Virus record (IMG/VR): IMGVR_UViG_3300045988_103144
Length of the DNA: 46,193 bases
Origin: a virus
Reading direction: 5' to 3' (one strand)
Under the pieces are notes generated by a model. It was given only the letters and a program-made list of their open reading frames with translations. It ran no database searches and had not been told where the DNA came from. Below, in pieces: positions 1-46,193 of the stretch (position 1 is the first letter of the stretch; each line of letters begins with the position of its first letter). Both the position numbers and the translations under genes were made by a program.

Positions 1-77
1 TGCCGGACGGCGGCTCCACCGATGATTCAGCCGATGTTGGGCTAGAGTAATGGCTTCTGTAATTAGTGGCGAAATAT
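1..77. repeat. Terminal direct repeat, copy 1 (identical to 46117..46193); most likely a circular-assembly overlap
   Basis: The first 77 nt (tgccggacggcggctccacc...agtggcgaaatat) recur exactly as the last 77 nt of the window. Confidence 0.9.
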
Positions 78-126
78 CGTCAATAATGCCGTTTTTAGGC
101 GTTTTGACGGCATTTCGCCACTTTTG
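65..126 (+). terminator. Stem-loop between the convergent HU-like gene and terL; candidate intrinsic terminator
   Basis: AGTGGCGAA (65-73) pairs with TTCGCCACT (114-122). An inner ATGCCG (86-91) pairs with CGGCAT (108-113). A TTTT run follows. Confidence 0.45.
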
Positions 127-135
127 CGTATAGTT

Positions 136-1881
136 TTACCTCTCGTAGGTATAAAGTAGCCCTAACGTCATTAAAAGCGTTATCGCCCCATCTATCTTGC
201 GGTATTGTGACACTTTGAGCGGCTTTTTGTTCTCCAGATTGTCGGTATCTATCACGCAATTTTCCAAACAGAAAGCGTTAATAGGGTTGTCGTTAAACTC
301 TATCTTTACCGGGTCACTCCATGCAAGCATCTCAAAACTTTCGACTGGTAGGTTAAAGTTTCCGTAGGTCTGACTAAATGGGGTTAGCACGTTCCTCGCT
401 CCAACTGACTTTAAAATACTCGTTAGCTCCTGCGCCTTGTAAGCATCGTAGCCAATACGGATAATATTAACCAACTTACTGCGCCTTAATATGTCCTCGG
501 TAATCATCGCCGTGTCTATCTTCTGCCCTTTGCAAAAAATAAGATACCCTTTTTCGTTCCAAAGCCTATAAAGCTGCTCGTTGGGATGCCCTTTTAACGC
601 TCCCTCCGGAAAATAGTAATCAGTATGCGTGTAAAACTTCTTATTGCCCGATAGGTACACGGTATAAGATACTGCGCTGAAATCATCATGCACCGACAAA
701 TCAAACGCCACGGCACAATCTGGGCGGCCCTGCACCTGATCTATACAGAAATTGCCCAATAATTCTTTTGCCTTTTCGTGGGTAAACCACGTTTTTTCGT
801 CGTTTATCGTGAAAATATTAAGCAATTTCGTGCGAAAAGCCAACATATTTTCGGCTGATAACTGGGCGGTCTGATACTCATTTTCGTAGTAGTCCGGTTG
901 CACCGTGATACCCAAATGTGGCTGCACCTTTGCCCACGTCTCCGGGCTGTCCTCTGCATCGTCCACATCAGGCATGAAGATAGATGCAAACATGGTGTCG
1001 CTTTCTGCCTCACCTCGTAGTACCGCCATCACTCCGTCAAGTTCGTGGGCAAATGGGCCATCTACCACATCGCTTGCCGTGGTGATAATGATTGTTAGCG
1101 GCTCACGCCTTGGCCCCATTGATGTTGTCAATACGTTTTTGAGGTCTGCGCCGTTCTTGCTTGCCGTGTTTCGGGCTTGGGCGTATTCGTCCATTATCAC
1201 CAATGAGGCAAACAAACCATCTTTGGTTTTGGCGTTGGCGGTCAAACATTGTATGAGGCTATCACGTCCACGGTCTTTGAAAGTAATCTTTTCACGATTA
1301 ACCCTAAAGTGCTTTTCCTTTGGGTCAATATCAAACATGATGTTTCGTATCTCGTCGAAACAGATTTTAGCCTGATCGTAGCTATTTGCGCCCACGTATG
1401 CCTGGGCGTTGTTATCGCCGAAAAGCATATCATAAACCGCCAAAGCTGCGCACGATGTCGTTTTGCTGAACTTTCGGGGCACGAATAGGTAGGCGGTACG
1501 TATCAGTCTGCGCCCATCGTCTCGGGCAAAGCCGTAGATATTGGCAAACTGGTAGGCCTGCACCGGGGTTAGCTTATAGCGTGTACGCCCTCGTATGCCA
1601 CTAAACCGCAAAGCCTCGTAGAACTTGAAAAAACGCTTTACTCGCTTGGGCTTCCAATCGTACTTATCAAGCAACTGCAAAAAGCGTCTTACTCCCAATA
1701 TCTCATACAGGTTGTGTGCGTCCGGGTGGTCTATCACTCCAAACACATAATCGCCGATACGCTTATCTGTTTCGATAAGCGCACGGCGGTAACGGTCGGC
1801 GTATGTACTGCGCCCCTGCCGCAACTGCTCCGATACCTCGGCTTTCAGTTGTCGAAATCTTTCTTTTTCTTCCTCTGTCAT
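136..1881 (-). CDS. terL: Terminase large subunit
   Basis: 581-aa ORF with COG4626-like TerL layout and an ATPase P-loop-like segment (VPRKFSKTTS). It overlaps the upstream TerS-like ORF by 4 nt, and an HNH gene lies nearby. Confidence 0.85.
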   Translation of the reverse strand: MTEEEKERFRQLKAEVSEQLRQGRSTYADRYRRALIETDKRIGDYVFGVIDHPDAHNLYEILGVRRFLQLLDKYDWKPKRVKRFFKFYEALRFSGIRGRTRYKLTPVQAYQFANIYGFARDDGRRLIRTAYLFVPRKFSKTTSCAALAVYDMLFGDNNAQAYVGANSYDQAKICFDEIRNIMFDIDPKEKHFRVNREKITFKDRGRDSLIQCLTANAKTKDGLFASLVIMDEYAQARNTASKNGADLKNVLTTSMGPRREPLTIIITTASDVVDGPFAHELDGVMAVLRGEAESDTMFASIFMPDVDDAEDSPETWAKVQPHLGITVQPDYYENEYQTAQLSAENMLAFRTKLLNIFTINDEKTWFTHEKAKELLGNFCIDQVQGRPDCAVAFDLSVHDDFSAVSYTVYLSGNKKFYTHTDYYFPEGALKGHPNEQLYRLWNEKGYLIFCKGQKIDTAMITEDILRRSKLVNIIRIGYDAYKAQELTSILKSVGARNVLTPFSQTYGNFNLPVESFEMLAWSDPVKIEFNDNPINAFCLENCVIDTDNLENKKPLKVSQYRKIDGAITLLMTLGLLYTYER

Positions 1882-2582
1882 TCGTCGCCCTCCTGCATCG
1901 CTGCCATAAAGTCGTTAAAACTATCGTTGTCGCTCTTTCGTTCCTTGCTCTCGGTGTTCATACCCAAAGCCCTTAACGCTTTCTGTCCCTGCTGCAACAA
2001 CTCGATATATAGCTTTTCTTTCGGGTCGATCGTCTTGCGTTCGTTACCCTCTCGGCTATACTCCACGTTTACGGCCTGGTGTCCGTCTGCCATGATTTCA
2101 TCGCCCAAAATGTCGGCACGTACCAACAACTTAGCCGTAATATCCACTTGGTATGTAAGTTCGGCGGTATATTTGCCTTGCTTCTTCAACAACTTAACGA
2201 TATACGCTTTCTTGCTCTTAATCTTGGCGGCTATCTTCTTGTTGTTTTCCTCGGTGGATGGCTCCGGCAAAGTCTGTCTAACTGGCAATGGGTCGTCGGT
2301 CTTTGGCTGCGCCTTGTCGCTGTAACCTCGCTTCTTGCCCTTGGTCTTCAGATAGAAGATAATAGCCGTTGTGTCGTTGGCGTTTATCGACTGCATCAAC
2401 TTACTTTCTACAAAATCTACCTGTGTCTCGGTGATCTCGTCCACTTTCTCCTTAAACTCTGGGTCGGCGTTGTACCATCGGTAATAAGTACTGCGCCCTA
2501 TGCCTATCGCCTCGCACGCTGTTGCTATGATGCCGTAGCCCTGCGCCAAAGCCTCCAAAAACTTTTGTTTCTTTTCTTCCAT
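1878..2582 (-). CDS. Terminase small subunit (N-terminal HTH, P27-like C-terminal half)
   Basis: 234 aa. The N-terminal HTH (ACEAIGIGRSTYYRWY) and the position immediately upstream of terL with an overlapping stop/start support the call. Confidence 0.6.
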   Translation of the reverse strand: MEEKKQKFLEALAQGYGIIATACEAIGIGRSTYYRWYNADPEFKEKVDEITETQVDFVESKLMQSINANDTTAIIFYLKTKGKKRGYSDKAQPKTDDPLPVRQTLPEPSTEENNKKIAAKIKSKKAYIVKLLKKQGKYTAELTYQVDITAKLLVRADILGDEIMADGHQAVNVEYSREGNERKTIDPKEKLYIELLQQGQKALRALGMNTESKERKSDNDSFNDFMAAMQEGDE

Positions 2583-2588
2583 GCTGCG

Positions 2589-3287
2589 TTACTTTTCAAA
2601 TGAGCGGATGCCGCCGAAGTAGTCTTTGTAAAACTCAAACAGTCCCTTATCAACTGTTATACTTCCCTGCTCCGTTCTTGGGTTAGTGTTAATGTTTGCG
2701 CTTGTCTGTATGCCGAAATAAAAGCCATCATCGTAGTTGCACCCTGCGTATATCTTGCTGTGGTTTTTGAATACTGCGGCACGTCCTGCCTCTGGGTGTT
2801 CCTGATAGAACTTTTGCACCATCTGCCACTCAATCTTATAGCTGTCCGGGAATATCTCGCCCAAATACATATCAAGTTTCTTAATGCGCCCTTGCTCGTA
2901 CCATTGCCGTACCTGCAAAATATCCTCTGCCGCCATGCACCATGTAGATAACAAACAATAGTCTAAGTCGTGCTGATTAAGCACCACTTTCAGGTAACTA
3001 AGGCTATCCACGTCCCCGGCGGTGATAAAATTGTAGGTGGTATGGTCTTGCAGCTTAACGTACTGCATTGCCTCCAATAACTTGACCTCGCTAAATGCCC
3101 GGCGGTACTCGTAGCGTTGCGATAACTCGGTACACTCCTTTGTACGTCTGTGCGCTCGCTTTGCCTGGGCGGTTGTCTCGGCTGTGGTTTCTTCCGGCTC
3201 CACCTCATCGGGTGGGGGGGCTTGGGTCTGACCTGCGCCAAAGCTGCCAAATCCAAAGCCTGTGCCATCTTGGTTTCCAAACTTCAT
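2589..3287 (-). CDS. PLD-like (HKD-motif) domain protein, putative nuclease
   Basis: 232 aa. NHSKIYAG...FGIQTSANIN resembles the HxK...GSxN phospholipase-D/Nuc signature. The N-terminus is low-complexity. Confidence 0.4.
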   Translation of the reverse strand: MKFGNQDGTGFGFGSFGAGQTQAPPPDEVEPEETTAETTAQAKRAHRRTKECTELSQRYEYRRAFSEVKLLEAMQYVKLQDHTTYNFITAGDVDSLSYLKVVLNQHDLDYCLLSTWCMAAEDILQVRQWYEQGRIKKLDMYLGEIFPDSYKIEWQMVQKFYQEHPEAGRAAVFKNHSKIYAGCNYDDGFYFGIQTSANINTNPRTEQGSITVDKGLFEFYKDYFGGIRSFEK

Positions 3288-3435
3288 AAATCTTGATTTT
3301 TAATATTAACCTACACACGTGGGCGTTTTTATATCGTGCCAAATATGCCGGGGCTTTGCATCTGGGCAAAATCCCCCACGGCCAAAAAATCGGCTCACGT
3401 GTGGAAAAGGGGATTGGTGAGGTTTAGTTCACTCA

Positions 3436-4044
3436 CTATGCCCTTAAAAAAAGTACCCCCGGGGTCTCAAACCCGAAAGTCTTAATAATTTCTTTCACTT
3501 CCTCATCTGTGAGGTTAAACCATTCGCCTTTTACTCTCGCACTCTGATATAGCTTGTGCAAATAAACTTCAATGTCTCTACCAACATAGGCAATAAGTTT
3601 CAATCGCTTTCTGCCAATCGTTTTCATTCTCATGTAGATGTCTTTTGACTTGCCAATCTTTATCAATCCGACGTCCTCATCACGAATTAAATACGTTTGA
3701 AACTCTGCCTTTTTAGTAAGCCCTATTTTGTTAGCGCATGATAGATGTCTTATATCGTATTGCTTGGCATCCTCCAAAATAGGTCTTGCCTTATCCATCA
3801 TTGCTTTGTATTCACTCTTTCTTAGCTTCAATATCTGCAATTCAAGATTAGTACTATACTCGTTAAGTACACTATTCAGTTGCTCACAAACGCCACTCAT
3901 CCAAACTTTCAAAAGTTCTTTGTCTTTCAATGAACGACGGATAATATTACCTTGAAACTGTATCTCTGCCGTATATGATATACCGCCATTCTTACGCTTA
4001 CGCTCATAGATTGAGCCATAAACATTTCCACCTTTGTGTTTCAT
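3436..4044 (-). CDS. T5orf172 (GIY-YIG-related) domain protein with an AP2-like N-terminus; homing-endonuclease-like
   Basis: 202 aa. The C-terminal TYLIRDEDVGLIKIGKSKDIYMRMKT...GEWFNL matches the T5orf172/MUG113 pattern. The N-terminal GISYTAEIQFQG is AP2-like. Confidence 0.55.
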   Translation of the reverse strand: MKHKGGNVYGSIYERKRKNGGISYTAEIQFQGNIIRRSLKDKELLKVWMSGVCEQLNSVLNEYSTNLELQILKLRKSEYKAMMDKARPILEDAKQYDIRHLSCANKIGLTKKAEFQTYLIRDEDVGLIKIGKSKDIYMRMKTIGRKRLKLIAYVGRDIEVYLHKLYQSARVKGEWFNLTDEEVKEIIKTFGFETPGVLFLRA

Positions 4045-6415: not shown

Positions 6416-8854
6416 TTAAAGGTCGCTTTCGTCGTCGTCTTCTGTTGGTCTGCTAAACCCTCGTTGTGTCCCATATATCGGAAATCTTGCAGACGATAAT
6501 TTTTGCCAACCAATTTCGCCCAACACCTTATTAACCTTTCTTGCTTCGTACTTGTAATCTTTACTGCCAACGTCTCGCCCTAACACCTCACAAAGAAACT
6601 CGGCGGCACATACTTTGGTACGTGTTTCCGTTCCTACCTCATCCAGTGGGTCGGGGTTCTTAATGTATGCACGTCGGCGGTTTAAATCCCATGTACTCCA
6701 GTCGGTCGGTAACTTCATATCTAAGTATGCCTGTATCATTCCCGGTAATGGGTCTTCCTGATTATCGTTAAACTCACCCTGACGCTTTCGGGCTTCCGCT
6801 TCCAAAGCCTCGCTAAGATACAACTTTTCGCCGTCCTTATAGCGTTGCACGGCTTCGGCCCATAACTGGTTACGGTCTGCCTCGATCGCTTGGCGTGGGT
6901 CTCCATGCTTACGTAGTTCTGGGTTTACACTCATTACCCAAAAGCGGCGGTTTCCGGTCTCTCCCTTTAAGAAATATGTTTCATTGGTCGTACCGCAAAA
7001 AACGCATTGTCTCGGGTGGGATTCCATCACGCTGCCGTATGCCGGGCGGTACATATCATTCTGACGGCTTATGTAGGCTTTCACCTGCTCAACGTCTGAT
7101 CGCTTGATACTGCCCAACTCCGGTAACTCGATAACCCAACCGTTCCGGGCTTGCTCCATACCTTTTGTACCCTCCATCGTTACCAAACTATCGCTAAACC
7201 AATCGCCGCCCATCACATTGAAAAGCGTAGATTTACCGATGCCCTCGGCTCCGGCAATAATCAGGCAATAATCATACTTGCATCCTGGGTTCATCACTCT
7301 TGCAACTGCTGCCGTAAAGTGCTTACGTGTCATAGCTCTGTTTAGCTCATTGTCTTCTGCACCTACGTAGTCGATAATTAGGCGGTCTAAGCGTGGCACG
7401 CCGTCCCATGTAAGACTATTGAGGTAATCACGTATTGGGTGTACTCTGTGACGTGTAACGACTGCCACCAAAGCATCTTTGATTTTGTCCTTTCCAGTTA
7501 CTCCGTACTTCTCATCTAAGTAGATTCTTAGATTTGCATCATCAGTATTACCCCATTGTGTCGCCTCGGCGTTCCACGGCAAACCACCTGTTATGTAGTT
7601 AAACCCATTAAACAGATTTTGCCATATATGGTTTTTTAACCTTGGGTCGTTCTCCAGAATAGCAATAATATTGCTTGCCGTTGATTTGATGCTGCCTTTC
7701 TTGTCAAAGTCTAATTCAGCCATCCACTTGTCGGCGTTTTCAGATACTGCGCTGTTCCCGGCTTCCTCTGCTTCGATGTCGGCAAAATCATCATCGGCCT
7801 GGCCCCGCCGTTCCTTTGTAAGTAAGATTCTAACCTTTTTGTCCTTGGCTACGAAATCCTGCATTTTCAGGTACGACGGCAAACGTGTATTGTCTGTTAT
7901 CTTCGTCCCCTCATCCTGCACACCATATAGATGTATTCGGCAAAGGTCGAAAGCATTGCAAAGCTGCTTACTCGCCGGGTCTGTTTCGTGGTTGCTGTAC
8001 GCAAACTTACCCTCATAGCAAACCAAACCTGCCGCCACACTACCATTAATGTACGTGTATCGCCCATCGTGGGCGGTCTTCTCGTACACATCAGGTAGAA
8101 ACGTGTCGATTGCATCCTCAATGGAATAGGCACGGCAAAAAGCACCAATTAAGCCGGGCTTTTCGGTTGGATCACCTACCTTTTTCAATTCGTGTACGAT
8201 GATGTCGCCCTCTCGGCTCGACACTGGCCAAAGTGCCACATCTTTATAGTCGTGGTACTGCTTTAGGAACTCATCAACGTTGCACGCCTTGCCGTCTTGG
8301 TACTCAAACACATATTCGCCGTCTCTGCTTGTAGATGGATAATAAAACAATCTCGCTAACTGATAGGTGGTATCGTCGAACACCTCAATATTAAGTTTGC
8401 TTGCTATCATCCTGCAAAGTGGCTCGTATTCATCCGGGCGTACCTGACGGCTTAATGGGAACACCAAACGAAAGCGTGGGTTTTCCGGCGTGTGCTTGTG
8501 TGTGCTGTAAAGCATCGCCGCAAAGTCAAAGTTTAGCGTGAACTCATCCCAAAGGTCGGGCGTACCGTAGTCAATATCAAGCGTGGCAATACTTCGCCAC
8601 ATTACGTTAGCGGTCTTTCGTGTGCCGCCTGATAGGTAGCCGCCGACAAAACCGCCCACGTCCTTGATGCTGCTTTGTTCCTCCCTGCTCATCTTGGCGT
8701 ACTCGCTTACGCTTTCGTTGGTTCGCTTCGTTTCGCTGCATCGCTCTACCAACTTCGCCCATGTGGTCGCTTTGTTCTTCCACTTCTTCGCCATACGGCT
8801 ATGGGCTGTTGCTATGTCGATCGGGAAATCATAGTTTAACTTTATCTGTGCCAT
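6416..8854 (-). CDS. DNA primase/helicase (VirE/VapE-type P-loop domain with an N-terminal primase-like region)
   Basis: 812 aa. Walker A is AGAEGIGKST, followed by a VapE-like region. The long N-terminal domain is typical of Bacteroides phage/CTn primases. Confidence 0.7.
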   Translation of the reverse strand: MAQIKLNYDFPIDIATAHSRMAKKWKNKATTWAKLVERCSETKRTNESVSEYAKMSREEQSSIKDVGGFVGGYLSGGTRKTANVMWRSIATLDIDYGTPDLWDEFTLNFDFAAMLYSTHKHTPENPRFRLVFPLSRQVRPDEYEPLCRMIASKLNIEVFDDTTYQLARLFYYPSTSRDGEYVFEYQDGKACNVDEFLKQYHDYKDVALWPVSSREGDIIVHELKKVGDPTEKPGLIGAFCRAYSIEDAIDTFLPDVYEKTAHDGRYTYINGSVAAGLVCYEGKFAYSNHETDPASKQLCNAFDLCRIHLYGVQDEGTKITDNTRLPSYLKMQDFVAKDKKVRILLTKERRGQADDDFADIEAEEAGNSAVSENADKWMAELDFDKKGSIKSTASNIIAILENDPRLKNHIWQNLFNGFNYITGGLPWNAEATQWGNTDDANLRIYLDEKYGVTGKDKIKDALVAVVTRHRVHPIRDYLNSLTWDGVPRLDRLIIDYVGAEDNELNRAMTRKHFTAAVARVMNPGCKYDYCLIIAGAEGIGKSTLFNVMGGDWFSDSLVTMEGTKGMEQARNGWVIELPELGSIKRSDVEQVKAYISRQNDMYRPAYGSVMESHPRQCVFCGTTNETYFLKGETGNRRFWVMSVNPELRKHGDPRQAIEADRNQLWAEAVQRYKDGEKLYLSEALEAEARKRQGEFNDNQEDPLPGMIQAYLDMKLPTDWSTWDLNRRRAYIKNPDPLDEVGTETRTKVCAAEFLCEVLGRDVGSKDYKYEARKVNKVLGEIGWQKLSSARFPIYGTQRGFSRPTEDDDESDL

Positions 8855-9086: not shown

Positions 9087-9121
9087 ATTGTTTTACTTTT
9101 TAAGATGATCGGTATTTTGGT

Positions 9122-10027
9122 TTATAAATCGTCGAACAAATTACCCTGTAATTTATGCTCACAATACCAATGTTTAAGGCCCTGCTTAGAAGTCCACCAA
9201 TTAAAAACCTCCTCGTCTGTTAGGTCGGTATAACGATTCACATAGCCGTTTTCTCTTAATCGGTGTATGGTACGCAATATTAAAGCCTTGTAGCGTGGAT
9301 ATGCCCCCCCTTGTTTTATAATTTCTTTTTGGCTTGCCATCGGGCAAAACAAACACCCGATACGTTGCCAACCTTTATCGTATAGCTCGCAGTGTTCTAC
9401 TTTAACGACTTCATTAAGAAAGTACCAAACATCTTCTTTCGTCCAATCTATGATAGGGTTTATCACGATTTTGTCTTTGCCCTTGACACACTGCACGCCC
9501 TCAACTTCTTGGCTTCGTGTAAATTGGTCTAACTGCTCAAAGCTGCCACTAAATCGGTCTGTCTTCTTCGCTCTGATAATCTCGGCTTCGTTTCTGTGGC
9601 TTCGCTGTACGGATTCCTCACGCCTTACACCTGTAAGTGTAACTGTCCCGGCTCCTTTGGTTTCTTTCAGTACGGCGCAACAAAAGCGCATTAAGCGAGT
9701 TGGCAAAGCCTTACTTTTGATGCAAAGTTGGGCAAAGGTTAGTTTAGGTCTATCTATTGCAACATCAGGATATTTGTTACGGATAAACATAACTAACTCT
9801 GGTGGATCTAAAGTCGTGAGGCTATAATGAGCGTCAAACTTTACACCTGCTAATACTGCCACGTGGTAAAGGCTCTGGCTATCTTTGCCCCCACTAAATG
9901 CCAAATAAAACCCCTTATCTGAATAACGCAAAGCCAACTTTTCCGACTTCTGTAATAACTCGATACTGTGTTGCAACTTTTTGTCAAAGTTAAGGGGTTT
10001 TCTCTTTTGATACGCTGTACTGTTCAT
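9122..10027 (-). CDS. PAPS-reductase-family PP-loop ATPase
   Basis: 301 aa with the PP-loop SGGKDS (LAFSGGKDSQS) and C-terminal cysteines (IGCLFCP). Confidence 0.75.
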   Translation of the reverse strand: MNSTAYQKRKPLNFDKKLQHSIELLQKSEKLALRYSDKGFYLAFSGGKDSQSLYHVAVLAGVKFDAHYSLTTLDPPELVMFIRNKYPDVAIDRPKLTFAQLCIKSKALPTRLMRFCCAVLKETKGAGTVTLTGVRREESVQRSHRNEAEIIRAKKTDRFSGSFEQLDQFTRSQEVEGVQCVKGKDKIVINPIIDWTKEDVWYFLNEVVKVEHCELYDKGWQRIGCLFCPMASQKEIIKQGGAYPRYKALILRTIHRLRENGYVNRYTDLTDEEVFNWWTSKQGLKHWYCEHKLQGNLFDDL

Positions 10028-10029
10028 AA

Positions 10030-10179
10030 CTAATTAAACCAAATCTTAAAATACCGCCAATCTATGCAACCGGGGCACTGCTCGCAAACTTCACACTCCG
10101 ATATTTTACAAACTCCGTAGCCGGGTTTGTCTTCATCAGGATCGTATGATAGGCACGTTTTGCAGTACATCTTTTTCAT
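10030..10179 (-). CDS. Small cysteine-rich protein (49 aa, 8 Cys), hand-translated
   Basis: MKKMYCKTCLSYDPDEDKPGYGVCKISECEVCEQCPGCIDWRYFKIWFN. It is below the ORF-track cutoff. Its stop lies 2 nt before the ATG (10027) of the PAPS-reductase-like gene. Confidence 0.4.
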   Translation of the reverse strand: MKKMYCKTCLSYDPDEDKPGYGVCKISECEVCEQCPGCIDWRYFKIWFN

Positions 10180-10203
10180 AATTGGCGGTATTGGTGAATA
10201 ATG

Positions 10204-10221
10204 GCACGGCTTTCGCCGTGC
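10204..10221 (-). promoter_or_regulatory. GC-rich hairpin with a GAAA loop downstream of VR2 (candidate DGR target-recognition element)
   Basis: Plus strand reads GCACGGC-TTTC-GCCGTGC. A near-identical element lies at 22108..22127. Confidence 0.6.
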
Positions 10222-10250
10222 TTAAAGATTAAAAACTAAAATATTAAGGG

Positions 10251-10961
10251 CTAAAAAATAAATGCTGACACTGCCCTAACTCTGCCCGTGTTGCTGGCCT
10301 TAGTGGTCCAATTGCTCGAAGTACCGTCGTCGAGGTACAGATACCACGCGTTGGTCGCACTGCTCTCGGTAGAAGTCCAATACCAACGGTCTTGCAGTTT
10401 ATCGCCCTTGGCAAACTCCAAAGCTGCATTGATAGTCTTTTTGTTGATAAAGATACGGTACAACTCGCCTAAAGATGGTATGTACCAATCATCAGCTAAC
10501 TTTATCTTTGGATTCAGGATGCTACGCAAATGGTTGGTGTTTCTCGCTCCGTCCATGTCTGCTACTGCATCGTCGTACTTGTCGATATAATAATCTTGGT
10601 CGGCTTTTAGATCGCTATTGCTCTTTGTGGTTAGTGCGATACCATCGCCGTTAGCCTCATCGTGCAAAGCTATCTTAATGCCAAAGCTACCCATCTTCAG
10701 ACCGATAGCCACTACCTCGCTATCCATGTTGTCGTCTTTGGTGTACTCCAGTTCAAACAAAGTTGCTTTGCCGTCGGCGTGTACCAAATAGACGCCGTCC
10801 TCTATGCCGGATTTTGGTAACTGCGCTTGTACTGGCTTTTCGTCCTTACCCATCACAAAGGTATTGGCTTTCTCCGCATCTTCCACGTTGCCACACCATT
10901 GTAATAACTCGTATCTGAATTGCTGCACGTCTGATAGTGCCTTACTTGTCTGTATCTCCAT
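10251..10961 (-). CDS. DGR target protein 2 (DUF1566/lectin-fold C-terminus carrying VR2)
   Basis: 236 aa. WYIPSLGELYRIF...WYWTSTESSATNAWYLYLDDGTSSNWTTKASNTGRVRAVSAFIF. The last 36 codons are collinear with the TR. Confidence 0.85.
   Translation of the reverse strand: MEIQTSKALSDVQQFRYELLQWCGNVEDAEKANTFVMGKDEKPVQAQLPKSGIEDGVYLVHADGKATLFELEYTKDDNMDSEVVAIGLKMGSFGIKIALHDEANGDGIALTTKSNSDLKADQDYYIDKYDDAVADMDGARNTNHLRSILNPKIKLADDWYIPSLGELYRIFINKKTINAALEFAKGDKLQDRWYWTSTESSATNAWYLYLDDGTSSNWTTKASNTGRVRAVSAFIF
10263..10370 (-). repeat. DGR variable repeat VR2
   Basis: 108 nt, collinear with TR 21493..21600. By hand alignment there are 10 mismatches, all at TR adenines (T on the + strand). Confidence 0.85.
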
Positions 10962-10987
10962 TTTTGTATATGCTTTATATTGTTTAA

Positions 10988-11290
10988 CTAATCTTCTTTA
11001 TACCATGCCCACGCTGCAAATTTCGCCTCTGCCACTATCTCATCAGTAATGAGCGGCTCGATCTGACTTGCATACGTCCACATGATAGGTAATTGGGCTT
11101 CCTGGGTTTCTGCCTTGCCCCAATCACATTCAGCCGGAACGACGTTACTATGATGGAACGTCATTAAACGACAAAGCGGATATTTTCGTTTACCCACCTT
11201 AAAAAGTAGGTATATCGGCACATTCTTTTTAGGGGCTTCCGTCGCCTTGTGCCATTCTACCTTAATTTCTGTTGTATTACTCTTTGCCAT
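10988..11290 (-). CDS. Hypothetical protein
   Basis: 100-aa co-oriented ORF between the polymerase gene and DGR target 2. Confidence 0.5.
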   Translation of the reverse strand: MAKSNTTEIKVEWHKATEAPKKNVPIYLLFKVGKRKYPLCRLMTFHHSNVVPAECDWGKAETQEAQLPIMWTYASQIEPLITDEIVAEAKFAAWAWYKED

Positions 11291-11303
11291 ATTGCTTTAT
11301 TGT

Positions 11304-13277
11304 TTAATCTTTTAGATAATATGGGGTGGTGTACCCTGCGCCTTTGAGTGGCAAATCTTTGCACCACGGTATAGGCTCACTAAACAAAGCCTCAACCATC
11401 GGTAACGTCTGGTCTTTCGTAGCCTCAACGATGATCTCATCGTGTATATGGAAAACTACGTTTAACCCTCGCTGCTCGGCTCTAAGTATCACACAACCTA
11501 ATATGTCACGTGCCGTAGCCTGTACGATGTTCTCGGTTAGCTTACCGCCGTAGGTTCTCAATTTTCCCCACTTCTTCGTTTTTTGGTTCAAACCCTCATA
11601 TTCGATAATTTCGTGGTCGCCTCGCCAACCGTCGTTTGTCTCGATTCCAACTTCTGTACGTGGGTAACAAATAGTCCTGCCACTTGGTAGGGTAATTAGC
11701 AACATACCCCAACGATAACTAATAATAATGCCTCGTTGTATCTGCACTCTTTTTCCTGTCTTAATGGCTATGATAGCCGCTTTCTCGACTGTACGCCATA
11801 ACTTAACGATATGTGGGTTACTGTCTCGCCACTTGTTTACGATGTCTTTTTCCTCGGATTCTGTTAAACCTAACTTCTTACCGCCCATCGCTTCCAATGC
11901 CGATACACCACCGCCGTAGCCCAAACCCAAAACGGCTACTTTGCCTTTCGGTCTCAAATCTCCGTTGGGGCCGTGCTTTTGTACTGGTACACCAAACATT
12001 TTGCTTGCCGTCTCACAATAGATGTCGTGCCCTGCTCTGAAAGCGTCCAATACCCATGTTTCCCCGGCAATCCATGCTATCACACGTGCCTCGATCGCTG
12101 AAAAGTCGCATACGTGGAACGTGCAACCGGGCTTGGCTATGAAAGCGGTACGTATCAACTCGCTAAGTACTTGGGTAACGTTTCCGTAGTTCATTTCAAA
12201 CTCTTCCAAATCGCCCTGCTTAACCAAATAGCGTGCATCATCCAGACTTTCCAGATGGTTTTGTGGTAGGTTCTGTAACTGCACCAAACGCCCTGCCCAT
12301 CTGCCTGTACGTGCTGCACCGCAAAACTGCAACAAACCATGTACTCGGCCATCCTTGCAGACACATTTTTGCATTGTCGTGTACTTCTTGTTAGAAGTCT
12401 TACCCATTTCCCTACGCAAAGCCAAAACTTTCTGCACCTTGGGCCAATACTTAAACTGCACCTCGTAGTCGTCCAAATTCTTTTTGTTGAGGCTATCAAT
12501 AGTAAACCCGGTGTTCTCGGATATGTATTGCTTAATCTGTCCGGGGCTATTGGGGTTGCTCATGCCTGTAAGTTTTCGGGCTTCTGCAAATAGCTCATCT
12601 TTGTATAGCTCATCAAATCGGGCGGCGTTGTTTACCAAAACTTGGTCTATCATCACGCCACGGTCGTTAATGTGCTGATCGGCTACGTACAAATCTTCGT
12701 CAAACTCTGGTGCCTCCAATCTTCTGACCTTTTTTAAGATGGCTTGCTCCACGTCCACGTCTCGGATATTGTAGGCTTTGAACGTTGCCCACTTATCGGG
12801 CGCATCGCTTGGCATGTGACGGATCATCTTTGTTATTCCCTGTTTGGTTTGCTTGTTTGGAACACTAAAGTATCTTATCAGGGCTTTACCCTCTGTCATC
12901 TTTCTGTCTTCCAGTTTAAGCACCTCACCACATTGAGCCAACGAAAGCGGCAAACCCATTCGAGCGGCTCTTACCATCGTACACCGCCATTGTCTCGGGT
13001 CTAATCGCCCTTTGATACCTAAATACACGCCAATACAAATCCGTTCAAAAGCTGCATTGAAAGCGGTCTTTATTACCTCGGGGTCGGTTAATGCTGCTTT
13101 GATGTCCGGCGGCAAAGTTTCGCCGCTTGCAAAGTCCACACATTTCGCCGGGCTACCGTCCACGCTATACCCAAAAAGCAATATGGTAAAGTCTTCGGCT
13201 TCCACATACTTATATACGCCACACTCGGTTAGGTCGTTGCTACTATATGTTTCGATGTCTATGCCTAATTCTTTCAT
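11304..13277 (-). CDS. Family A DNA polymerase with 3'-5' exonuclease domain
   Basis: 657 aa. ExoI is GIDIETYS, motif A is DFSAIEARVIAW, motif B is RPKGKVAVLGLGYGGG and motif C is HIHDEIIVE. Confidence 0.9.
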   Translation of the reverse strand: MKELGIDIETYSSNDLTECGVYKYVEAEDFTILLFGYSVDGSPAKCVDFASGETLPPDIKAALTDPEVIKTAFNAAFERICIGVYLGIKGRLDPRQWRCTMVRAARMGLPLSLAQCGEVLKLEDRKMTEGKALIRYFSVPNKQTKQGITKMIRHMPSDAPDKWATFKAYNIRDVDVEQAILKKVRRLEAPEFDEDLYVADQHINDRGVMIDQVLVNNAARFDELYKDELFAEARKLTGMSNPNSPGQIKQYISENTGFTIDSLNKKNLDDYEVQFKYWPKVQKVLALRREMGKTSNKKYTTMQKCVCKDGRVHGLLQFCGAARTGRWAGRLVQLQNLPQNHLESLDDARYLVKQGDLEEFEMNYGNVTQVLSELIRTAFIAKPGCTFHVCDFSAIEARVIAWIAGETWVLDAFRAGHDIYCETASKMFGVPVQKHGPNGDLRPKGKVAVLGLGYGGGVSALEAMGGKKLGLTESEEKDIVNKWRDSNPHIVKLWRTVEKAAIIAIKTGKRVQIQRGIIISYRWGMLLITLPSGRTICYPRTEVGIETNDGWRGDHEIIEYEGLNQKTKKWGKLRTYGGKLTENIVQATARDILGCVILRAEQRGLNVVFHIHDEIIVEATKDQTLPMVEALFSEPIPWCKDLPLKGAGYTTPYYLKD

Positions 13278-13295
13278 ACGCTTTGTTGTTTAAAT

Positions 13296-13328
13296 ACCCC
13301 GGCGGCTTCCTCTTTCCACCGCCGGGGT
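13296..13328 (-). terminator. 10-bp GC-rich stem-loop between the SSB and polymerase genes (terminator/attenuator-like)
   Basis: ACCCCGGCGG...CCGCCGGGGT with a 13-nt loop; the U-tract is weak. Confidence 0.35.
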
Positions 13329-13363
13329 CACACATTAACATTTTATCGTAGAAAAAAAGCATT

Positions 13364-13927
13364 TTACAAATCGTCGTCGTCCTCGTCGTCGATTCCGTCC
13401 AAATCTCCAAAGTCGCTTTCGGCTGATACTCTTCCGCCCAAATGGTCGTCGTCCTTGAACTTCATAATGTTGTTGAGGCCGCACGCTACGCCCTTGTTAC
13501 CGCTTACGTCGTAGCCGTAGAAAGTTACCGACACAATCGCCCAAACGCCGCTGTAAACTTCTTCCTCGTCCACGATAGGCACTTTCTTGCGATCAACTAC
13601 GCCCGGGCGTGTGTTGCTCTTGGCGTTCAAATAGTAGTGGTCTTCGTAAACCTCATCGTCCTTTTCGTCACCATCACGCAAAGCCAAATCAAGTTTCTTA
13701 GGCTCTTTGCCTCCCCACTTGGCTACGATAGCGGCTTTCTTAGCTGCCTCGATTGCCTTTTTTATGGCTTCGATAGTCTTCTTTTCAGACTTCGGGATCA
13801 AAACGTTAGTCATAAACTTGCCCTCTCCGACACCGTCCGGGCTGAACTTCTCGAAAACGTGGGTGTAACTAAGGCGGCATGGGCCAAAGATTACCTTAGT
13901 GTCATTAACTACTTTAGGGTCTATCAT
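13364..13927 (-). CDS. ssDNA-binding protein (DUF2815-like)
   Basis: 187 aa. It has a CRLSYTHVFE start motif and an acidic tail (DGIDDEDDDDL), and sits between the DUF2800-like nuclease and PolA. Confidence 0.65.
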   Translation of the reverse strand: MIDPKVVNDTKVIFGPCRLSYTHVFEKFSPDGVGEGKFMTNVLIPKSEKKTIEAIKKAIEAAKKAAIVAKWGGKEPKKLDLALRDGDEKDDEVYEDHYYLNAKSNTRPGVVDRKKVPIVDEEEVYSGVWAIVSVTFYGYDVSGNKGVACGLNNIMKFKDDDHLGGRVSAESDFGDLDGIDDEDDDDL

Positions 13928-13953
13928 AATTGTATGAATTTAAAATGTTAAAC

Positions 13954-15102
13954 TTAAATGTCTTTAAAATCGTCTGCTGCCTGATTAAACGCCGGGCGTT
14001 TATCTGATTCAGGCACTAACGTTGGTTTGCCTTGTGGCTTGTTGATGTACTCGGCACAAATTGTACAAAAGCGTTTCTTACCAATGAGCTTCTCCAAATC
14101 GGTAATACTTCGTAGCTCGGTAGGCTTAATGTAGGCTTCTTTTGCAAAGCCCTCTTTGCCTAAAAGTTCCATCACGGCGGTTGGGTTTGTTATCTTTCTG
14201 ATACTGCGCCCCTCAACGATTTTAAAACCTCTGTACTGTACACCACTTAACGCCTGTTCCAAACTGTACTCCTCAACTCCAGTTAGCCACGTTTTGATCG
14301 TTGAAAGCAAAGGTAGTATAGTGCTTTCCATTACTTCCTTGCTAATTTTACGTGGGTCGGGGTTGGCTTGCTGTGCTTCGATACACATAGACGATAGGGC
14401 TTTGCAGTTTGCCTTAATCTTGCAGAACTGACACCAATTGCCCGGCTTTTGCTTACCTCCGGCATAGGCTTCGTTGGCTTTTGGTTGCAGCTCATCGACT
14501 GCCCAATTAATGAGGTCGGCGGCATCTAACTCGAACTCCGAAAGATTATCAATACGTGGTTGTACGATAGTCATGCGTACCTTACGTATGTCGTACTCAA
14601 AGTTAAATAAGTCCCATGCGCCCAAAGCGTAAATCATCATTTGTGGATTTTCCACGGCTGACACTTTTACGCCCTTACCATACTTAAAGTCGATAATTTC
14701 CATCACGCCATCGGCGATAATGATAGCGTCCGACGTGCCGAAAGCATCAGGCACATAGTGGCTAAAATCTAACTTGACCTCAACCAACAATTGTGCGTCC
14801 TTGGTCTTAGCTCGGGCGGCGTTGAACTTCTCCAGTACGATAGTCTTGTACGTATCGGTGTACTCGTCCATTTCGCCACTGTGGTACTGCTCGTCTAACT
14901 GCGCTATTTCGGCTTTTTCCTCATCCGCCGACAAACCCAAAAACTCTTTCAGTTTCTTGGCGCAATAGGCGTGGGCTAACGTTCCCTCCTCTGCAAAGGT
15001 GCTGCCCTTATCCTCCACGTCTTTTTCCAGAAGTGGGGCGGCGGTACAATTCATCCAACGATGTGCCGCACTTGGTGATAATAAAGCGTGTTTACCTGCC
15101 AT
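13954..15102 (-). CDS. PD-(D/E)xK Cas4-like nuclease (DUF2800-like)
   Basis: 382 aa. N-terminal LLSPSAAHRWMNCTAAP and C-terminal cysteines (WCQFCKIKANC). Confidence 0.6.
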   Translation of the reverse strand: MAGKHALLSPSAAHRWMNCTAAPLLEKDVEDKGSTFAEEGTLAHAYCAKKLKEFLGLSADEEKAEIAQLDEQYHSGEMDEYTDTYKTIVLEKFNAARAKTKDAQLLVEVKLDFSHYVPDAFGTSDAIIIADGVMEIIDFKYGKGVKVSAVENPQMMIYALGAWDLFNFEYDIRKVRMTIVQPRIDNLSEFELDAADLINWAVDELQPKANEAYAGGKQKPGNWCQFCKIKANCKALSSMCIEAQQANPDPRKISKEVMESTILPLLSTIKTWLTGVEEYSLEQALSGVQYRGFKIVEGRSIRKITNPTAVMELLGKEGFAKEAYIKPTELRSITDLEKLIGKKRFCTICAEYINKPQGKPTLVPESDKRPAFNQAADDFKDI

Positions 15103-16490: not shown

Positions 16491-16676
16491 TTACTTAGTT
16501 ACTTATACCTTTGGAGAAAAAGAAAAACTGCCGTATATTTGCAGTTGGGTTTATGGTATGTTGGGCAAAATGTCCGACAGCCTTTCTTGTACTCGTAAGG
16601 TTAGTTACTTACTTATTTCGAGTGCAAAGATACGGCGAAATTTCGCCACTACAAAATTATTTGGCGAGAAATCGCC
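16491..16676. promoter_or_regulatory. Lysis/lysogeny switch region with face-to-face promoters and two operator types
   Basis: Rightward TACCTTTG box at 16506-16513. Leftward TTTG (16655-16652), a 19-nt spacer, then TATCTTTG (16632-16625). Palindrome GGCGAAATTTCGCC at 16634-16647 and GGCGAGAAATCGCC at 16663-16676. 17-mer motifs at 16491-16507 and 16600-16616. Confidence 0.5.
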
Positions 16677-16705
16677 ATTTATTAACTATTATTAATAATA
16701 GCCGT

Positions 16706-17107
16706 ATGTTTGAAACTATCAATCAAAGGATAAAAGCGGTATTAGATACCGTGTATCACGGAAACGTTACAGCAATGGCAAAAGGCTCATACATAAAGCG
16801 TACCACTATAAATAGTATAGTGGGGCCTAATGAAACAACGCCGGGGTTTGATGTTATTGCTAAGATTGGCGAAATCTCGTCACCACGAATAAGTATGGAA
16901 TGGCTTGTACGTGGTGTTGGTGATATGTTCTTAGACGAAAAAGATACCATAATATATAATAATGGTGTCAATGGAGACAATAACGCAAGTTATAACGATA
17001 GTGATATGTTAAGCCGTCTTGTTGGTTTGGTTGAGGCTAAAGACAAACAATTGGCTGAAAAGGATAAACAGATTAATACTTTGTTGGAGATTATAAAAGC
17101 TAAGTGA
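16706..17107 (+). CDS. CI-like repressor (Phage_CI_repr/BetR-type HTH plus C-terminal coiled coil)
   Basis: 133 aa counted from the ATG at 16706. NVTAMAKGSYIKRTTINSIV...ISMEWLVRGVGDMF. The track ORF start at 16511 is a TTG extension. Confidence 0.6.
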   Translation: MFETINQRIKAVLDTVYHGNVTAMAKGSYIKRTTINSIVGPNETTPGFDVIAKIGEISSPRISMEWLVRGVGDMFLDEKDTIIYNNGVNGDNNASYNDSDMLSRLVGLVEAKDKQLAEKDKQINTLLEIIKAK

Positions 17108-17564: not shown

Positions 17565-18803
17565 ATGGCAAAATCTCGTTTTCGCTTAGATGTTCGTAGG
17601 GCATTAAAAGATGGTACGTACCCGATTCAGATTATAGTAGGGCACGGCACTAACATCTATCTTGGTACTGGTGTCTATGCCTCGGTTGGTGAGTGGGATG
17701 CCCGGACACAACAATACATTGGCAAAGGGGCACGGCGTATTAACGCCGCTCTTGTCTCTATGCTCGCTATGGTTACTAACCGCATTATGGAATTAAAGGA
17801 GACTGGGCAATGGCCGAAATTATCACGTAGGCAAATCAAACAAATGCTTACCGACTTGGAATTGGAAAAGCCCACCATTGATGTACCTACGCTTAGTGAC
17901 GTATTTTCGTCAATGTGTGAGGGGCGCGCCGATCGCACTAAGGGGATAACCAAAAGTGCATCGTTAAAGATACAGGCATTTGGCTATGATCCGGCAAAGC
18001 TGCACTTTGAGCAAATAACTACTACGTGGTTAGATGATTTCTACGCGTCGATGTCTGGGCTATCAATTAATACGAAAGCGGCATACATGAAAGCTGTTAA
18101 GCGCGCGTTTAACTGGGCAATAGACCACAATATTACAACTAATGATCCTTTCAGACACTACCGCATAAAGGTAGAAGAAACTCGTATGAGGGATTTGCCG
18201 ATAGAGAAAATGAGGCAATTGTTAGACTTACCACTACAGGGGCTTTATCCTGAATATCGTGATTTGTTCATGCTTACCTTTTACCTGATAGGCATTAATA
18301 CGGTTGATCTTGCCGACTGCACGTTAGATAGCATCGTTAATGGTCGCTTGGAATACCGCCGACACAAAACAAATAAGCTATATAGCATTAAGATTGAGCC
18401 GGAAGCAATGGAGATAATAAACCGCTATAAGGGCAAAAAGCACCTCATACGTTGCTTTGATAGGTACAAAGACTATAAAGCCTTACAGGGTAGCGTTAAT
18501 AACGCTCTATCTAAAATAGGCCCTGCCCGGTTGGATGATAACGGAAATTTCGTTTTTACTCGAAACCACCGAAAAGAAATGCAACCTTTGGAAAAGGGGC
18601 TATCTTTGTACTGGGCGCGTTACTCCTGGGCGACGTATGCCGCCGACTTGGATATACCTAAAGACACTATCAGTGAGGCTTTGGGACACTCCCACGGCGC
18701 AAAGGTTACAGGTGTGTATATAAAGTACAATAGGGATAAAGTGGATGCCGCAAACCGCAAAGTTATAGACTACGTATTGGGTAAAGCAAACCGCCCGGGC
18801 TAA
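17565..18803 (+). CDS. int: Tyrosine site-specific integrase
   Basis: 412 aa with a Bacteroides-type N-terminal arm-binding region. C-terminal catalytic region: RHKT...YWARYSWAT...ALGHSHGAKVTGVYIKY. Confidence 0.85.
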   Translation: MAKSRFRLDVRRALKDGTYPIQIIVGHGTNIYLGTGVYASVGEWDARTQQYIGKGARRINAALVSMLAMVTNRIMELKETGQWPKLSRRQIKQMLTDLELEKPTIDVPTLSDVFSSMCEGRADRTKGITKSASLKIQAFGYDPAKLHFEQITTTWLDDFYASMSGLSINTKAAYMKAVKRAFNWAIDHNITTNDPFRHYRIKVEETRMRDLPIEKMRQLLDLPLQGLYPEYRDLFMLTFYLIGINTVDLADCTLDSIVNGRLEYRRHKTNKLYSIKIEPEAMEIINRYKGKKHLIRCFDRYKDYKALQGSVNNALSKIGPARLDDNGNFVFTRNHRKEMQPLEKGLSLYWARYSWATYAADLDIPKDTISEALGHSHGAKVTGVYIKYNRDKVDAANRKVIDYVLGKANRPG

Positions 18804-20266: not shown

Positions 20267-21451
20267 TCAGTAGTCGCCATTTCTAATTCTCTGCATAGTT
20301 TGATACCTCAATTTATGTTTGTTCTTAATTACCAATACTTCGTAGTGCCCTTTGATGTACACATATTCTTTATATATGCGCGGCTCGATCATGTTAAGCA
20401 CTTTACGACGCATAGCATATTCATTGGTATGCCTTAACAAACCTAAATATGAGTTGATACTACATACCGCGTGTAATACCTGACGCTCGTTGTTAGCCTT
20501 GTTTAGTCGCCTGACCGCGGCAATAAAGTTTGTTATTGTTCTGTTACAGGTATAGACACGTCCGGGCTTTACTATTGACCCGGTAAACTCCACGCCTTTG
20601 CTGTAGTGTTGCAAATAAAACTTTTTCTCATTCAGTCGTAAACCTAACTTGGCTAATAGTTCACGTATCTTAGGCACCAACGCCAATAGCTTTTCTTTGT
20701 CCTTATGGATGCAATAGAAGTCGTCTACATATCTGCCATGATGTTTTATACCCTCATTCTCAATATACCAATCAAGCGTATTAAGTAAGAAATTGGCAAA
20801 TATCTGGGCAAACAGGTTGCCGATGGCTACGCCCTTACCCTCACCATTTGTAAATAGTGATTTGTTCTTATCCAACTTCTCCCAATAGCTTAAAGGGCTG
20901 TGCCGTTCACAATTCCTTTCGGGGCTGTGTAAAATAACGACACGGCAAAGGTAGCGCAAATCGTCTATGTCTTCGCCCTTGTAGTACCTGACTATAAAGC
21001 GATCTACCATTTCAGCCAATAACTTTTTGTCGATGCTCATAAAGAAACCTTTTAAGTCAAGTTTCATAATGTAGCAATCTTTCGTGTAATTATTGCTGCA
21101 CTGCCTTATATCTTCTTTCAGCATATTAATACCATAAAGCTGCCCTTTGCCTTTCCTACAATTAAATGTACGCTCGCTAAAGATTTCTTCAAATAGCGGC
21201 GTTAGGCGCAAAGCTATGTAATGGTGTACGATTCTATCTTCAAAGGATGCTGCAAATACCTCTCTGTATCTTGGGCGTGTTACGACAAAGCAAATAGACT
21301 TACCCGGTTGGTATGTTCGGTTATTGATTCTATCACGCAAAGCAATCAAACGGCTTTCGTAGTCCATTTCGTAAACAACCGCGCTCGCTGTCCGTCTCTT
21401 GCTATGGCGACAATCAAAGTAAGCATCTAAAAGCCATTCTGTCGTTACCAT
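20267..21451 (-). CDS. DGR reverse transcriptase
   Basis: 394 aa with the RYVDDFYC catalytic box and the DGR-type GVAIGNLFAQIFANFLLN motif. Its start lies 41 nt downstream of the TR. Confidence 0.85.
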   Translation of the reverse strand: MVTTEWLLDAYFDCRHSKRRTASAVVYEMDYESRLIALRDRINNRTYQPGKSICFVVTRPRYREVFAASFEDRIVHHYIALRLTPLFEEIFSERTFNCRKGKGQLYGINMLKEDIRQCSNNYTKDCYIMKLDLKGFFMSIDKKLLAEMVDRFIVRYYKGEDIDDLRYLCRVVILHSPERNCERHSPLSYWEKLDKNKSLFTNGEGKGVAIGNLFAQIFANFLLNTLDWYIENEGIKHHGRYVDDFYCIHKDKEKLLALVPKIRELLAKLGLRLNEKKFYLQHYSKGVEFTGSIVKPGRVYTCNRTITNFIAAVRRLNKANNERQVLHAVCSINSYLGLLRHTNEYAMRRKVLNMIEPRIYKEYVYIKGHYEVLVIKNKHKLRYQTMQRIRNGDY

Positions 21452-21492: not shown

Positions 21493-21600
21493 TGCTGACA
21501 CTGCCCTAACTCTGTTCGTGTTGCTGGCCTTAGTGTTCCAATTGTTCGTATTACCGTCGTTGAGGTTCAGATTCCACGCGTTGGTCGCACTGTTCTCGGT
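21493..21600 (-). ncRNA. DGR template repeat (TR)
   Basis: 108 nt homologous to the 3' ends of two ORFs. Sense strand reads ACCGAGAACAGT...GTGTCAGCA. It is adenine-rich, with 11 AAC/AAT codons in the VR frame. Confidence 0.85.
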
Positions 21601-22080: not shown

Positions 22081-22107
22081 TGCTTGTTTATTAAATTGCC
22101 TTATAAT

Positions 22108-22127
22108 GGTACGGCTTTCGCCGTACC
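22108..22127 (-). promoter_or_regulatory. GC-rich hairpin with a GAAA loop downstream of VR1
   Basis: Plus strand reads GGTACGGC-TTTC-GCCGTACC. It is the paralogue of 10204..10221 with a compensatory C:G to T:A change. Confidence 0.6.
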
Positions 22128-22155
22128 TAAAGGTTAAAGACTAAGAAATTAAGAA

Positions 22156-46166: not shown

Positions 46167-46193
46167 TGGCTTCTGTAATTAGTGGCGAAATAT
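46117..46193. repeat. Terminal direct repeat, copy 2 (identical to 1..77)
   Basis: Exact 77-nt identity with the window start. Confidence 0.9.

Follow-up and report, generated by a model that had tools for sequence, protein, structure and literature searches.

To our knowledge, almost everything learned so far about the diversity-generating retroelements (DGRs) of phages concerns tropism switching through tail fibres, the mechanistic prototype being the Mtd/VR system of Bordetella phage BPP-1. Homing in this phage requires a hairpin with a GC stem of 7-10 bp and a GRNA tetraloop, and this hairpin together with the IMH (initiation of mutagenic homing) element suffices to retarget the DGR, the reported distances from the variable repeat (VR) ranging from 4 to 34 bp (Guo et al. 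2011, PMC3240598). The Bacuni phages of Bacteroides uniformis carry two DGR targets, one of them distant from the reverse transcriptase (RT), and both were interpreted as fimbrial-tip-like adhesins (Hedzet, Rupnik & Accetto 2021, PMC8143477), while in Quimbyvirus a second, non-structural target lies among methyltransferases and a conflict-related role was proposed for it (Benler et al. 2021, PMC8008677). In the large metagenomic DGR survey of Roux et al. (2021, PMC8144416) remote targets were explicitly not surveyed. Here we analyse the viral record IMGVR_UViG_3300045988_103144 of IMG/VR, a stretch of 46,193 nt hereafter called the window, in which a gene of the replication module (target gene 2, T2; 10251-10961, - strand, 236 aa) carries a VR near its 3' end, and we conclude that the single DGR of this phage has in T2 a genuine second target, which it acts on in trans and still uses. 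The window phage shares with BPP-1 the adenine-specific transfer from a template repeat (TR) to a VR, a 3' homology boundary and the location of the VR at the 3' end of a gene for a C-type-lectin-fold protein, but BPP-1 has one target, a tail-fibre tip protein encoded next to avd-TR-brt, whereas the window phage has two.

The TR (21493-21600, - strand, 108 nt) is located in the avd-RT intergenic region, flanked in the same genome by a cognate RT and an accessory variability determinant (bAvd), both recognized by Pfam. On the coding strand (-), the 108-nt repeat of T2, VR2 (10370..10263), aligns gap-free to TR 21600..21493 at a separation of 11,230 nt and stops 12 nt short of the stop codon. 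The alignment displays ten mismatches in 108 nt, and all ten are found at TR adenines, of which there are 39, a coincidence with a chance probability of P=1.6e-5 (hypergeometric); there are no non-adenine mismatches and no indels. The open reading frame (ORF) of 236 aa, its distance of about 11.2 kb from the TR and the collinear segment with adenine-only changes had all been proposed in an initial annotation made from the letters alone, and the alignment bears them out. All the changes fall in codon positions 1 or 2 and convert, from TR to VR2, AAC>AGC, AAT>TAT, AAC>TAC, AAC>GAC, AAT>ACT, ACG>TCG, AAC>AGC, AAC>ACC and AAC>GGC, eight of the nine affected TR codons being AAC or AAT and the remaining one ACG. 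The changes listed earlier agree with these except for AAT>TAT, which had been read as AAC>TAC.

Both targets share the putative signals for homing. The invariant 3' end of VR2, CAGAGTTAGGGCAGTGTCAGCA (10263-10284, - strand), is identical in TR, VR1 (the VR of target gene 1, T1) and VR2, and the window contains exactly three copies of this 22-mer, one in each of these repeats, where chance would predict none. Mutations at its adenines are very rare among 36 VRs, and the segment probably acts like an IMH that sets the 3' limit of homing; compared with BPP-1, no GC-only IMH/IMH* distinction is evident, the last 22 nt being the same in TR, VR1 and VR2. The similarity between VR1 and VR2 continues for about 65 nt past the stop codon, through a conserved 3' flank common to T2 and T1 (10198-10262, - strand), and over the whole repeat the identity amounts to 88% (10198-10318 versus 22103-22223). 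Within this flank of T2 lies the hairpin GCACGGC-GAAA-GCCGTGC (10204-10221, - strand), with a 7-bp GC-rich stem and a GAAA loop, which starts 29 nt past the stop and 41 nt past the end of the TR homology, slightly beyond the published 4-34 bp. The corresponding hairpin downstream of VR1, GGTACGGC-GAAA-GCCGTACC (22108-22127, - strand), differs from it by a compensatory C-G to T-A change, and no such GC-rich hairpin is found in the flank of the TR. In related loci a GC hairpin is present in 94/97 T2 flanks and 74/76 T1 flanks, with a stem of 7-11 bp and a 4-nt loop (mostly GAAA, in some cases GGTA, GGCA, GCAA or GTTA) located 10-35 nt past the stop, and the many distinct stems are all still complementary, which is covariation. 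We predict the VR2 hairpin to be a DGR target-recognition hairpin or cruciform, its stem and loop corresponding to the element established by experiment in BPP-1 (PMC3240598). A third occurrence of the hairpin core, GGCGAAAGCC at 42397-42406, was judged to be due to chance, since it lies within a coding region, has a stem of 5 bp only and is accompanied by no VR; likewise, the ORF 10288-10590 (+ strand) was rejected as a gene, being merely the antisense of the VR, as also occurs at the TR.

The avd-TR-RT cassette (20.3-22.1 kb) supplies adenine-mutagenised cDNA of the 108-nt TR, and this cDNA replaces both the adjacent VR1 and VR2, 11.2 kb away, each target being recognized, as predicted above, via the common 22-nt 3' homology end and the downstream GC-rich GAAA hairpin. 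The RT (20267-21451, - strand) matches Pfam RVT_1 with 73 bits and the RT of PADLOC, and has IGNLFAQ in place of (I/L/V)GxxxSQ, the usual motif of DGR RTs. The bAvd gene (21664-22080, - strand) reaches 86.5 bits with Pfam bAvd, and with the NCBIfam model a score of 38.7, under the cut-off of 80. T1 (22156-22935, - strand, 259 aa) closes the tail module, and from residue 52 on the two targets are paralogous. Its VR1 (22168-22272, - strand, 105 nt), although adjacent to the RT, is a less perfect copy of the TR than VR2, with 11 adenine mismatches, one C>A and a 3-nt deletion. The deletion converts GGTAATACG of the TR to GGTACG, and the lone non-adenine change is GAC>GAA. The same 3-nt loss is found in VR1 of contig 121255 (L137) and in VR2 of contig 090877 (L014), and in no TR, which points to in-frame slippage at TA-A-TA that has recurred, either while the cDNA is made or in the course of homing.

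The diversification of T2 is also visible beyond the window. Among 1,560 database homologues the best 120 are 92-100% identical to T2, and the variation within these 120 is almost confined to residues 200, 204, 207, 209, 211, 214, 216, 217, 219, 224 and 226, which correspond to AAY-templated codons and display the set of residues expected from AAY mutagenesis. The VRs of 17 IMG/VR contigs with both loci were compared with the TR of the same contig, which differs from VR1 at 10-18 adenines and from VR2 at 12-21, and at almost nothing else. Furthermore, three TR point variants outside the mutable adenines, G15T, G24A and A76G (the last in one contig), are present in both VRs of the same contig, and this directly demonstrates that sequence passes from the TR into each of the two targets. 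In the nearest relative, PolA (family A DNA polymerase), SSB (single-stranded DNA-binding protein), DUF2800 and the RT/avd/TR region are virtually identical to those of the window, and the VR2 bin contains 16 differences, the VR1 bins 17. The ratio of non-synonymous to synonymous polymorphism (pN/pS) of T2 is 0.19 outside the VR and 5.75 inside, values that indicate purifying selection on the rest of the gene. The initial annotation had named a VR2 without variation across related genomes as evidence to the contrary; VR2 is decisively hypervariable in the relatives, and together with the mismatch pattern, the variation among the 120 homologues, the 17 contigs and the nearest relative this establishes the genuine remote second target that had been suggested. 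A bias in the residues at some of these positions was also observed, non-template residues being favoured in the same 120 sequences at positions 209 (10335-10337; Tyr in 69), 226 (10284-10286; Gly in 71) and 207 (10341-10343; Tyr in 45), and the last variable codon is mostly GGC in VR1 and VR2 alike. This may reflect selection on a binding surface or rarer replacement beside the 3' homing boundary.

T2 is encoded outside the tail/virion morphogenesis module, between PolA (11304-13277, - strand; Pfam DNA_pol_A), upstream and in the same orientation, and the downstream PAPS-reductase-like gene (PAPS_reduct; 9122-10027, - strand), which is followed by VapE. The initial annotation had placed it between these two genes and within the replication module, away from virion genes; the location and both neighbors are right, as the gene context and its conservation attest, but an intervening 100-aa ORF (10988-11290, - strand), missing in several close relatives, had been omitted. 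The order PolA-(small ORF)-T2-variable slot-85-aa ORF-VapE is found in 32/32 close IMG/VR loci, and in nearly all distant loci, in which DUF2800 is 66-88% and T2 32-51% identical, a T2-like gene follows PolA. The PolA-T2 order is also found in contigs retrieved via the protein database, and the survey of related phages that had been called for thus shows the position just downstream of PolA to be kept in more than 100 related contigs as well as in Bacuni F1/F2/F4. T2 keeps this position throughout a large group of Bacteroidales siphophages. In the distant relatives L062, L074 and Bacuni F1 both targets match their own TR with adenine-specific differences, and therefore the two-target layout is ancestral to the group. 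T2-like proteins with the same N-terminal motif are found, in addition, among the early/non-structural genes of the unrelated phages BS-TP1 and csAssE-Sib.

Several variations on this arrangement were observed. In contig L254 (8001-9335; protein P0121, 444 aa), the replication module of which is similar in other respects, a tandem double T2-like gene is located after VapE and not after PolA. The slot that follows T2 (10028-10250 and 9122-10027; relatives L002, L013 and L193) is a swap site, occupied here by the PAPS-reductase-like gene, which has a weak BrxP-like match in PADLOC, and in most relatives by a full or truncated C5 cytosine DNA methyltransferase gene, or by nothing. The region of the 100-aa ORF (10988-11499) displays 37 differences in 500 nt relative to the nearest relative, L001, the flanking genes being almost identical, and to judge from this contrast it is a small mosaic cassette, without family match.

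The context that the initial annotation regarded as unusual for a phage DGR target has precedents, since a PolA-adjacent target was published for Bacuni (PMC8143477) and a non-structural one for Quimbyvirus (PMC8008677). The distant target of Bacuni F1/F2/F4 (Bacuni_F1_00026, MT635598) is the T2 orthologue, 47-48% identical over 97% of its length, with the same architecture and position, and in the GenBank record PolA, a small ORF, the target and DNA-modification (methyltransferase) genes follow each other. As in the window phage, one TR serves two VRs with adenine-specific mismatches, and a GC hairpin of the same kind, its loop 4 nt long, is located downstream. The two differ in the host, B. 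uniformis for Bacuni and Segatella copri-type for the window phage (a prophage), in the slot downstream of the target (a C5 methyltransferase versus a PAPS reductase), and in overall sequence, PolA being 73% identical and no match being detected at the nucleotide level. In fact, a megablast search of 9100-13300 against deposited phages returned no nucleotide match, and relatives were reached by protein-level search. The paper of Hedzet et al. is silent on the location in the replication module, on the exchange of the N-terminal module and on how far the gene is conserved in the wider phage group (PMC8143477). Quimbyvirus ('Quimbyviridae') likewise combines one DGR with two C-type-lectin-type proteins, one target being located after the tail-fibre genes and the other far off by DNA methyltransferase and DNA-metabolism genes, and T2 fits the same description of a second target remote from structural genes, among genes for DNA metabolism and modification. 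Nevertheless, Quimbyvirus is an unrelated phage of about 75 kb with an RT in three overlapping frames, and it encodes the second target within a defence-like island and on the opposite strand, whereas T2 is on the same strand, behind PolA, in a DUF2800-SSB-PolA-VapE module.

The T2 protein comprises a helical hairpin, a P/Q-rich linker and a DUF1566/Lcl_C-type domain. By BLASTP its similarity to T1 is restricted to the last 82 residues and the first 155 are unmatched, but when the two families are compared as profiles with hhalign, T2 52-236 is matched to T1 52-259 (probability 99.95%, E 8.6e-38), and in both proteins the common domain opens with a DGI(Y/F) strand. The DUF1566-like C-terminal scaffold common to both targets, as initially annotated, is confirmed by this alignment, but the N-terminal half had been called unrelated and only the first ~50 residues differ. 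On this profile evidence, T1 and T2 are paralogous DUF1566/C-type-lectin-like putative binding domains that differ only in the N-terminal ~50 residues. The match of T2 to Pfam Lcl_C (PF07603) is 32.7 bits, under the gathering cut-off of 34.9, and PF07603 is precomputed for most T2 homologues; T2 also matches phrog_4245 and, weakly, the profiles of the DUF1566 structures 8q4e and 4eps. Nothing was obtained for T2 or the small neighboring ORFs with PADLOC and NCBIfam. The N-terminal ~50 residues are particular to the T2 family, unlike the N-terminus of T1, and display the family motif L-S/T-x-x-Q-x-x-R/K-Y-x-L-L ... A-K-K-x-Y-D-F-V, of which no second copy is found in the window. In an AlphaFold2 (AF2) model they form helices at 11-23 and 26-37 with a predicted local distance difference test score (pLDDT) of 82-85, a helical hairpin of residues ~8-38 that precedes the P/Q-rich linker. 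A Foldseek search of the poor AF2 model of T2 against PDB gave no match at E<=0.001, and BFVD returned weak matches to the DUF1566 part only (TM score ~0.4-0.45), neither search being informative on the N-terminal module. When the N-terminal 51 residues were compared with 1.8 billion representatives, members of the T2 family and long InlB B-repeat (Flg_new_2) proteins were retrieved, the repeat 'YEFVNWTGDVADANSANTTVTM' resembling 'YELLQWCGNVEDAEKANTFVMG'. Homology to these repeats was rejected, since the shared W, G and ANT are not kept in the wider T2 family, AF2 predicts helices, and the presence of as many as 10 repeats in one protein inflates the E-values. The N-terminus of T1 matched only Bacuni among deposited phages, and no known tail-docking motif could be demonstrated in it. 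Bacterial DGRs with multiple or remote targets, such as those of Legionella and Treponema, also use one TR for several distant VRs, often on DUF1566/C-type-lectin-fold scaffolds, but these are cellular elements with targets that are mostly secreted or lipoprotein surface proteins; in T2, by comparison, no signal peptide, lipobox or hydrophobic segment is found.

The window bears an exact 77-nt direct repeat at its ends (1-77 = 46117-46193), and it therefore represents a complete, circularly assembled phage genome. Nearly all its genes are on the - strand, in the order virion genes (~44 to 23 kb), DGR cassette, lysis genes and a leftward replication module, with an integrase gene (17565-18803, + strand) between the last two. 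Besides PolA and T2 the replication module includes a DUF2800 nuclease (13954-15102, - strand), an Enc34-type SSB (13364-13927, - strand), a VapE primase-helicase (6416-8854, - strand) and, beyond VapE, an SNF2 helicase. Within a 1210-aa ORF (30743-34375), which we take to encode the tape-measure protein, two 300-nt direct repeats (31484-32140) are 73% identical and 357 nt apart. A relative with 94% identity is integrated as a prophage beside genes for TamB, a pseudouridine synthase and a short-chain dehydrogenase, and the flanking TamB gene is 97-100% identical to that of Segatella (Prevotella) copri genomes; because of these flanking genes we consider the host to be of the Segatella copri type. 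A search with T2 of GTDB representative genomes yielded no relative, and a literature search found no link between S. copri prophages and a PolA-adjacent DGR target.

Concerning expression, T2 starts 13-31 nt behind PolA or the small ORF, with a gap of 24-31 nt in many loci, and on the - strand no TAnnTTTG, the Bacteroidetes -7 motif, occurs from 10962 to 14308, that is, in the 3.3 kb upstream of T2. A full -33/-7 promoter match is found in the early regulatory region (16625-16655), the window containing nine full matches where 2.5 are expected. Because T2 has neither a signal peptide nor a promoter consensus of its own, follows its upstream gene at this short distance and lacks the T1-type N-terminal module, it most likely shares a transcript with the replication genes. 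Bacteroidetes-type promoter matches (TTTG...TAnnTTTG) in divergent orientation on both strands at 16510-16655 separate the replication module from the + strand ORF 16511-17107, and this is likely the lysis-lysogeny switch region. Taking all the evidence as a whole, the status of T2 as a DGR target combined with a role away from the tail is the explanation that we consider probable. As to the role itself, we lean towards a soluble, diversified binder with a function other than that of primary tail receptor-binding protein. Its ligand might be a host factor that varies, or else a factor of a competitor, involved in defence or superinfection, and the T2-specific N-terminal helical hairpin would act as an adaptor. 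More tentatively, and with a good deal of doubt, we may picture a conserved family of early, intracellular, DGR-hypermutated proteins, antibody-like binders for counter-defence, host takeover or superinfection exclusion in the replication operon of a large group of Bacteroidales siphophages, the tail-tip target having been duplicated and its N-terminal adaptor exchanged.

Before this role is weighed, two explanations that would deprive T2 of its status as an active target have to be considered. VR2 could be a relic, a former target or a duplicated 3' end of T1 that is no longer diversified, the adenine pattern being historical. Uncoupling of this kind can occur: in IMGVR_UViG_3300034415_000142 (L152/L026) VR1 tracks its own divergent TR with one non-adenine mismatch, but VR2 displays 10 non-adenine mismatches to that TR and resembles the repeat of the main lineage, and with PolA 81% and DUF2800 67% identical the replication module seems to have been recombined in, so that VR2 was uncoupled from the resident TR; likewise, no TR was found within 14.6 kb of the T2-like gene of BS-TP1. 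Nevertheless, VR2 of the window, without any non-adenine mismatch or indel, is cleaner than VR1, its hairpin and 22-mer are intact, it differs in every close relative, TR point variants have been copied into it, and the cultured isolates Bacuni F1 and F2, from one study, differ only in this VR, so that a relic is highly improbable. Alternatively, the repeat common to VR1 and VR2, which with the 3' flanks amounts to ~170 nt at 88-91% identity, could have produced a chimeric join in the assembly, T2 truly being located elsewhere. The short contig L176 (IMGVR_UViG_3300026549_000568, 7.9 kb), in which region 1-3951 has the order PolA, 106-aa ORF, T2-like, Avd, TR and RT, may have been joined in this way across the VR/hairpin repeat common to both targets, or may be a real variant. 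An artefact in the window can hardly be credited at all, in view of the same order of PolA, T2, slot and VapE in each of the 32 close loci, in dozens of distant ones, in the prophage integrated in a contig of the S. copri type and in the cultured Bacuni phages, which have finished genomes, as well as of the first 155 residues of T2, which are unrelated to T1 at the BLAST level.

The serious competitor concerns function: T2 may be a second virion-associated receptor-binding or adhesion protein with a gene merely located outside the tail module, the helical hairpin docking it on tail or capsid and VR2 broadening adsorption, as a tropism determinant or a mucus/glycan adhesin. We regard this as a possibility to be taken seriously, if a somewhat unlikely one. 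Several observations that weigh against a role away from the tail speak for it. DUF1566 domains are typical of adhesins and phage tail-fibre tips, the domain of T2 is paralogous to that of the tail-module target, its BFVD neighbors are DUF1566 proteins and one weak match is annotated 'tail fiber protein', the preponderance of Tyr209 (69/120) and Gly226 (71/120) indicates selection on a binding surface, and both Bacuni targets were read as adhesion proteins by Hedzet et al. T1 and T2 are diversified from one TR, therefore sample the same binding-site sequence space, and this fits two adhesins for similar surface ligands. Moreover, gene position is weak evidence of timing because the whole genome is transcribed on one strand, the promoter scan consisted of consensus matching only, and the AF2 model of the whole protein (105-sequence alignment) is poor, with a mean pLDDT of 66 and a disordered VR region below 50, the fold searches having given nothing on the N-terminal module. 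On the other hand, a virion protein does not readily account for a position directly behind PolA in more than 100 contigs and its after-VapE variant, for the lack of the conserved N-terminal module of T1, or for T2 homologues in early-gene regions of unrelated phages. The host ranges of the Bacuni phages point in the same direction, in a comparison that comprises very few strains. Bacuni F1 and F2 display 16 differences in 901 nt, all within the PolA-adjacent VR, and infect the same strain, while F1 and F4, with a different RT-adjacent VR, infect different strains (PMC8143477). From these host ranges and VR sequences we infer that T2 is not the main tropism determinant.

The layout described here is already known from the Bacuni phages, and T2 is a moderate addition to the known DGR targets. 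The present analysis adds to this that the two targets are paralogues with exchanged N-terminal modules, that the location beside PolA is deeply conserved, that TR variants have reached both VRs in concert and that the hairpins covary. In widespread human-gut Bacteroidales phages, one DGR keeps rewriting a second protein encoded in the apparent replication operon, which is paralogous to the target on the tail side but begins with another N-terminal module. Because the cultured Bacuni phages carry the same gene, the role of a non-structural phage DGR target is directly testable in an existing culture system. Should T2 prove to be a virion protein, it would be an ordinary second adhesin; if it is a diversified intracellular binder, the role of DGRs in phages would extend from adsorption to intracellular conflict.

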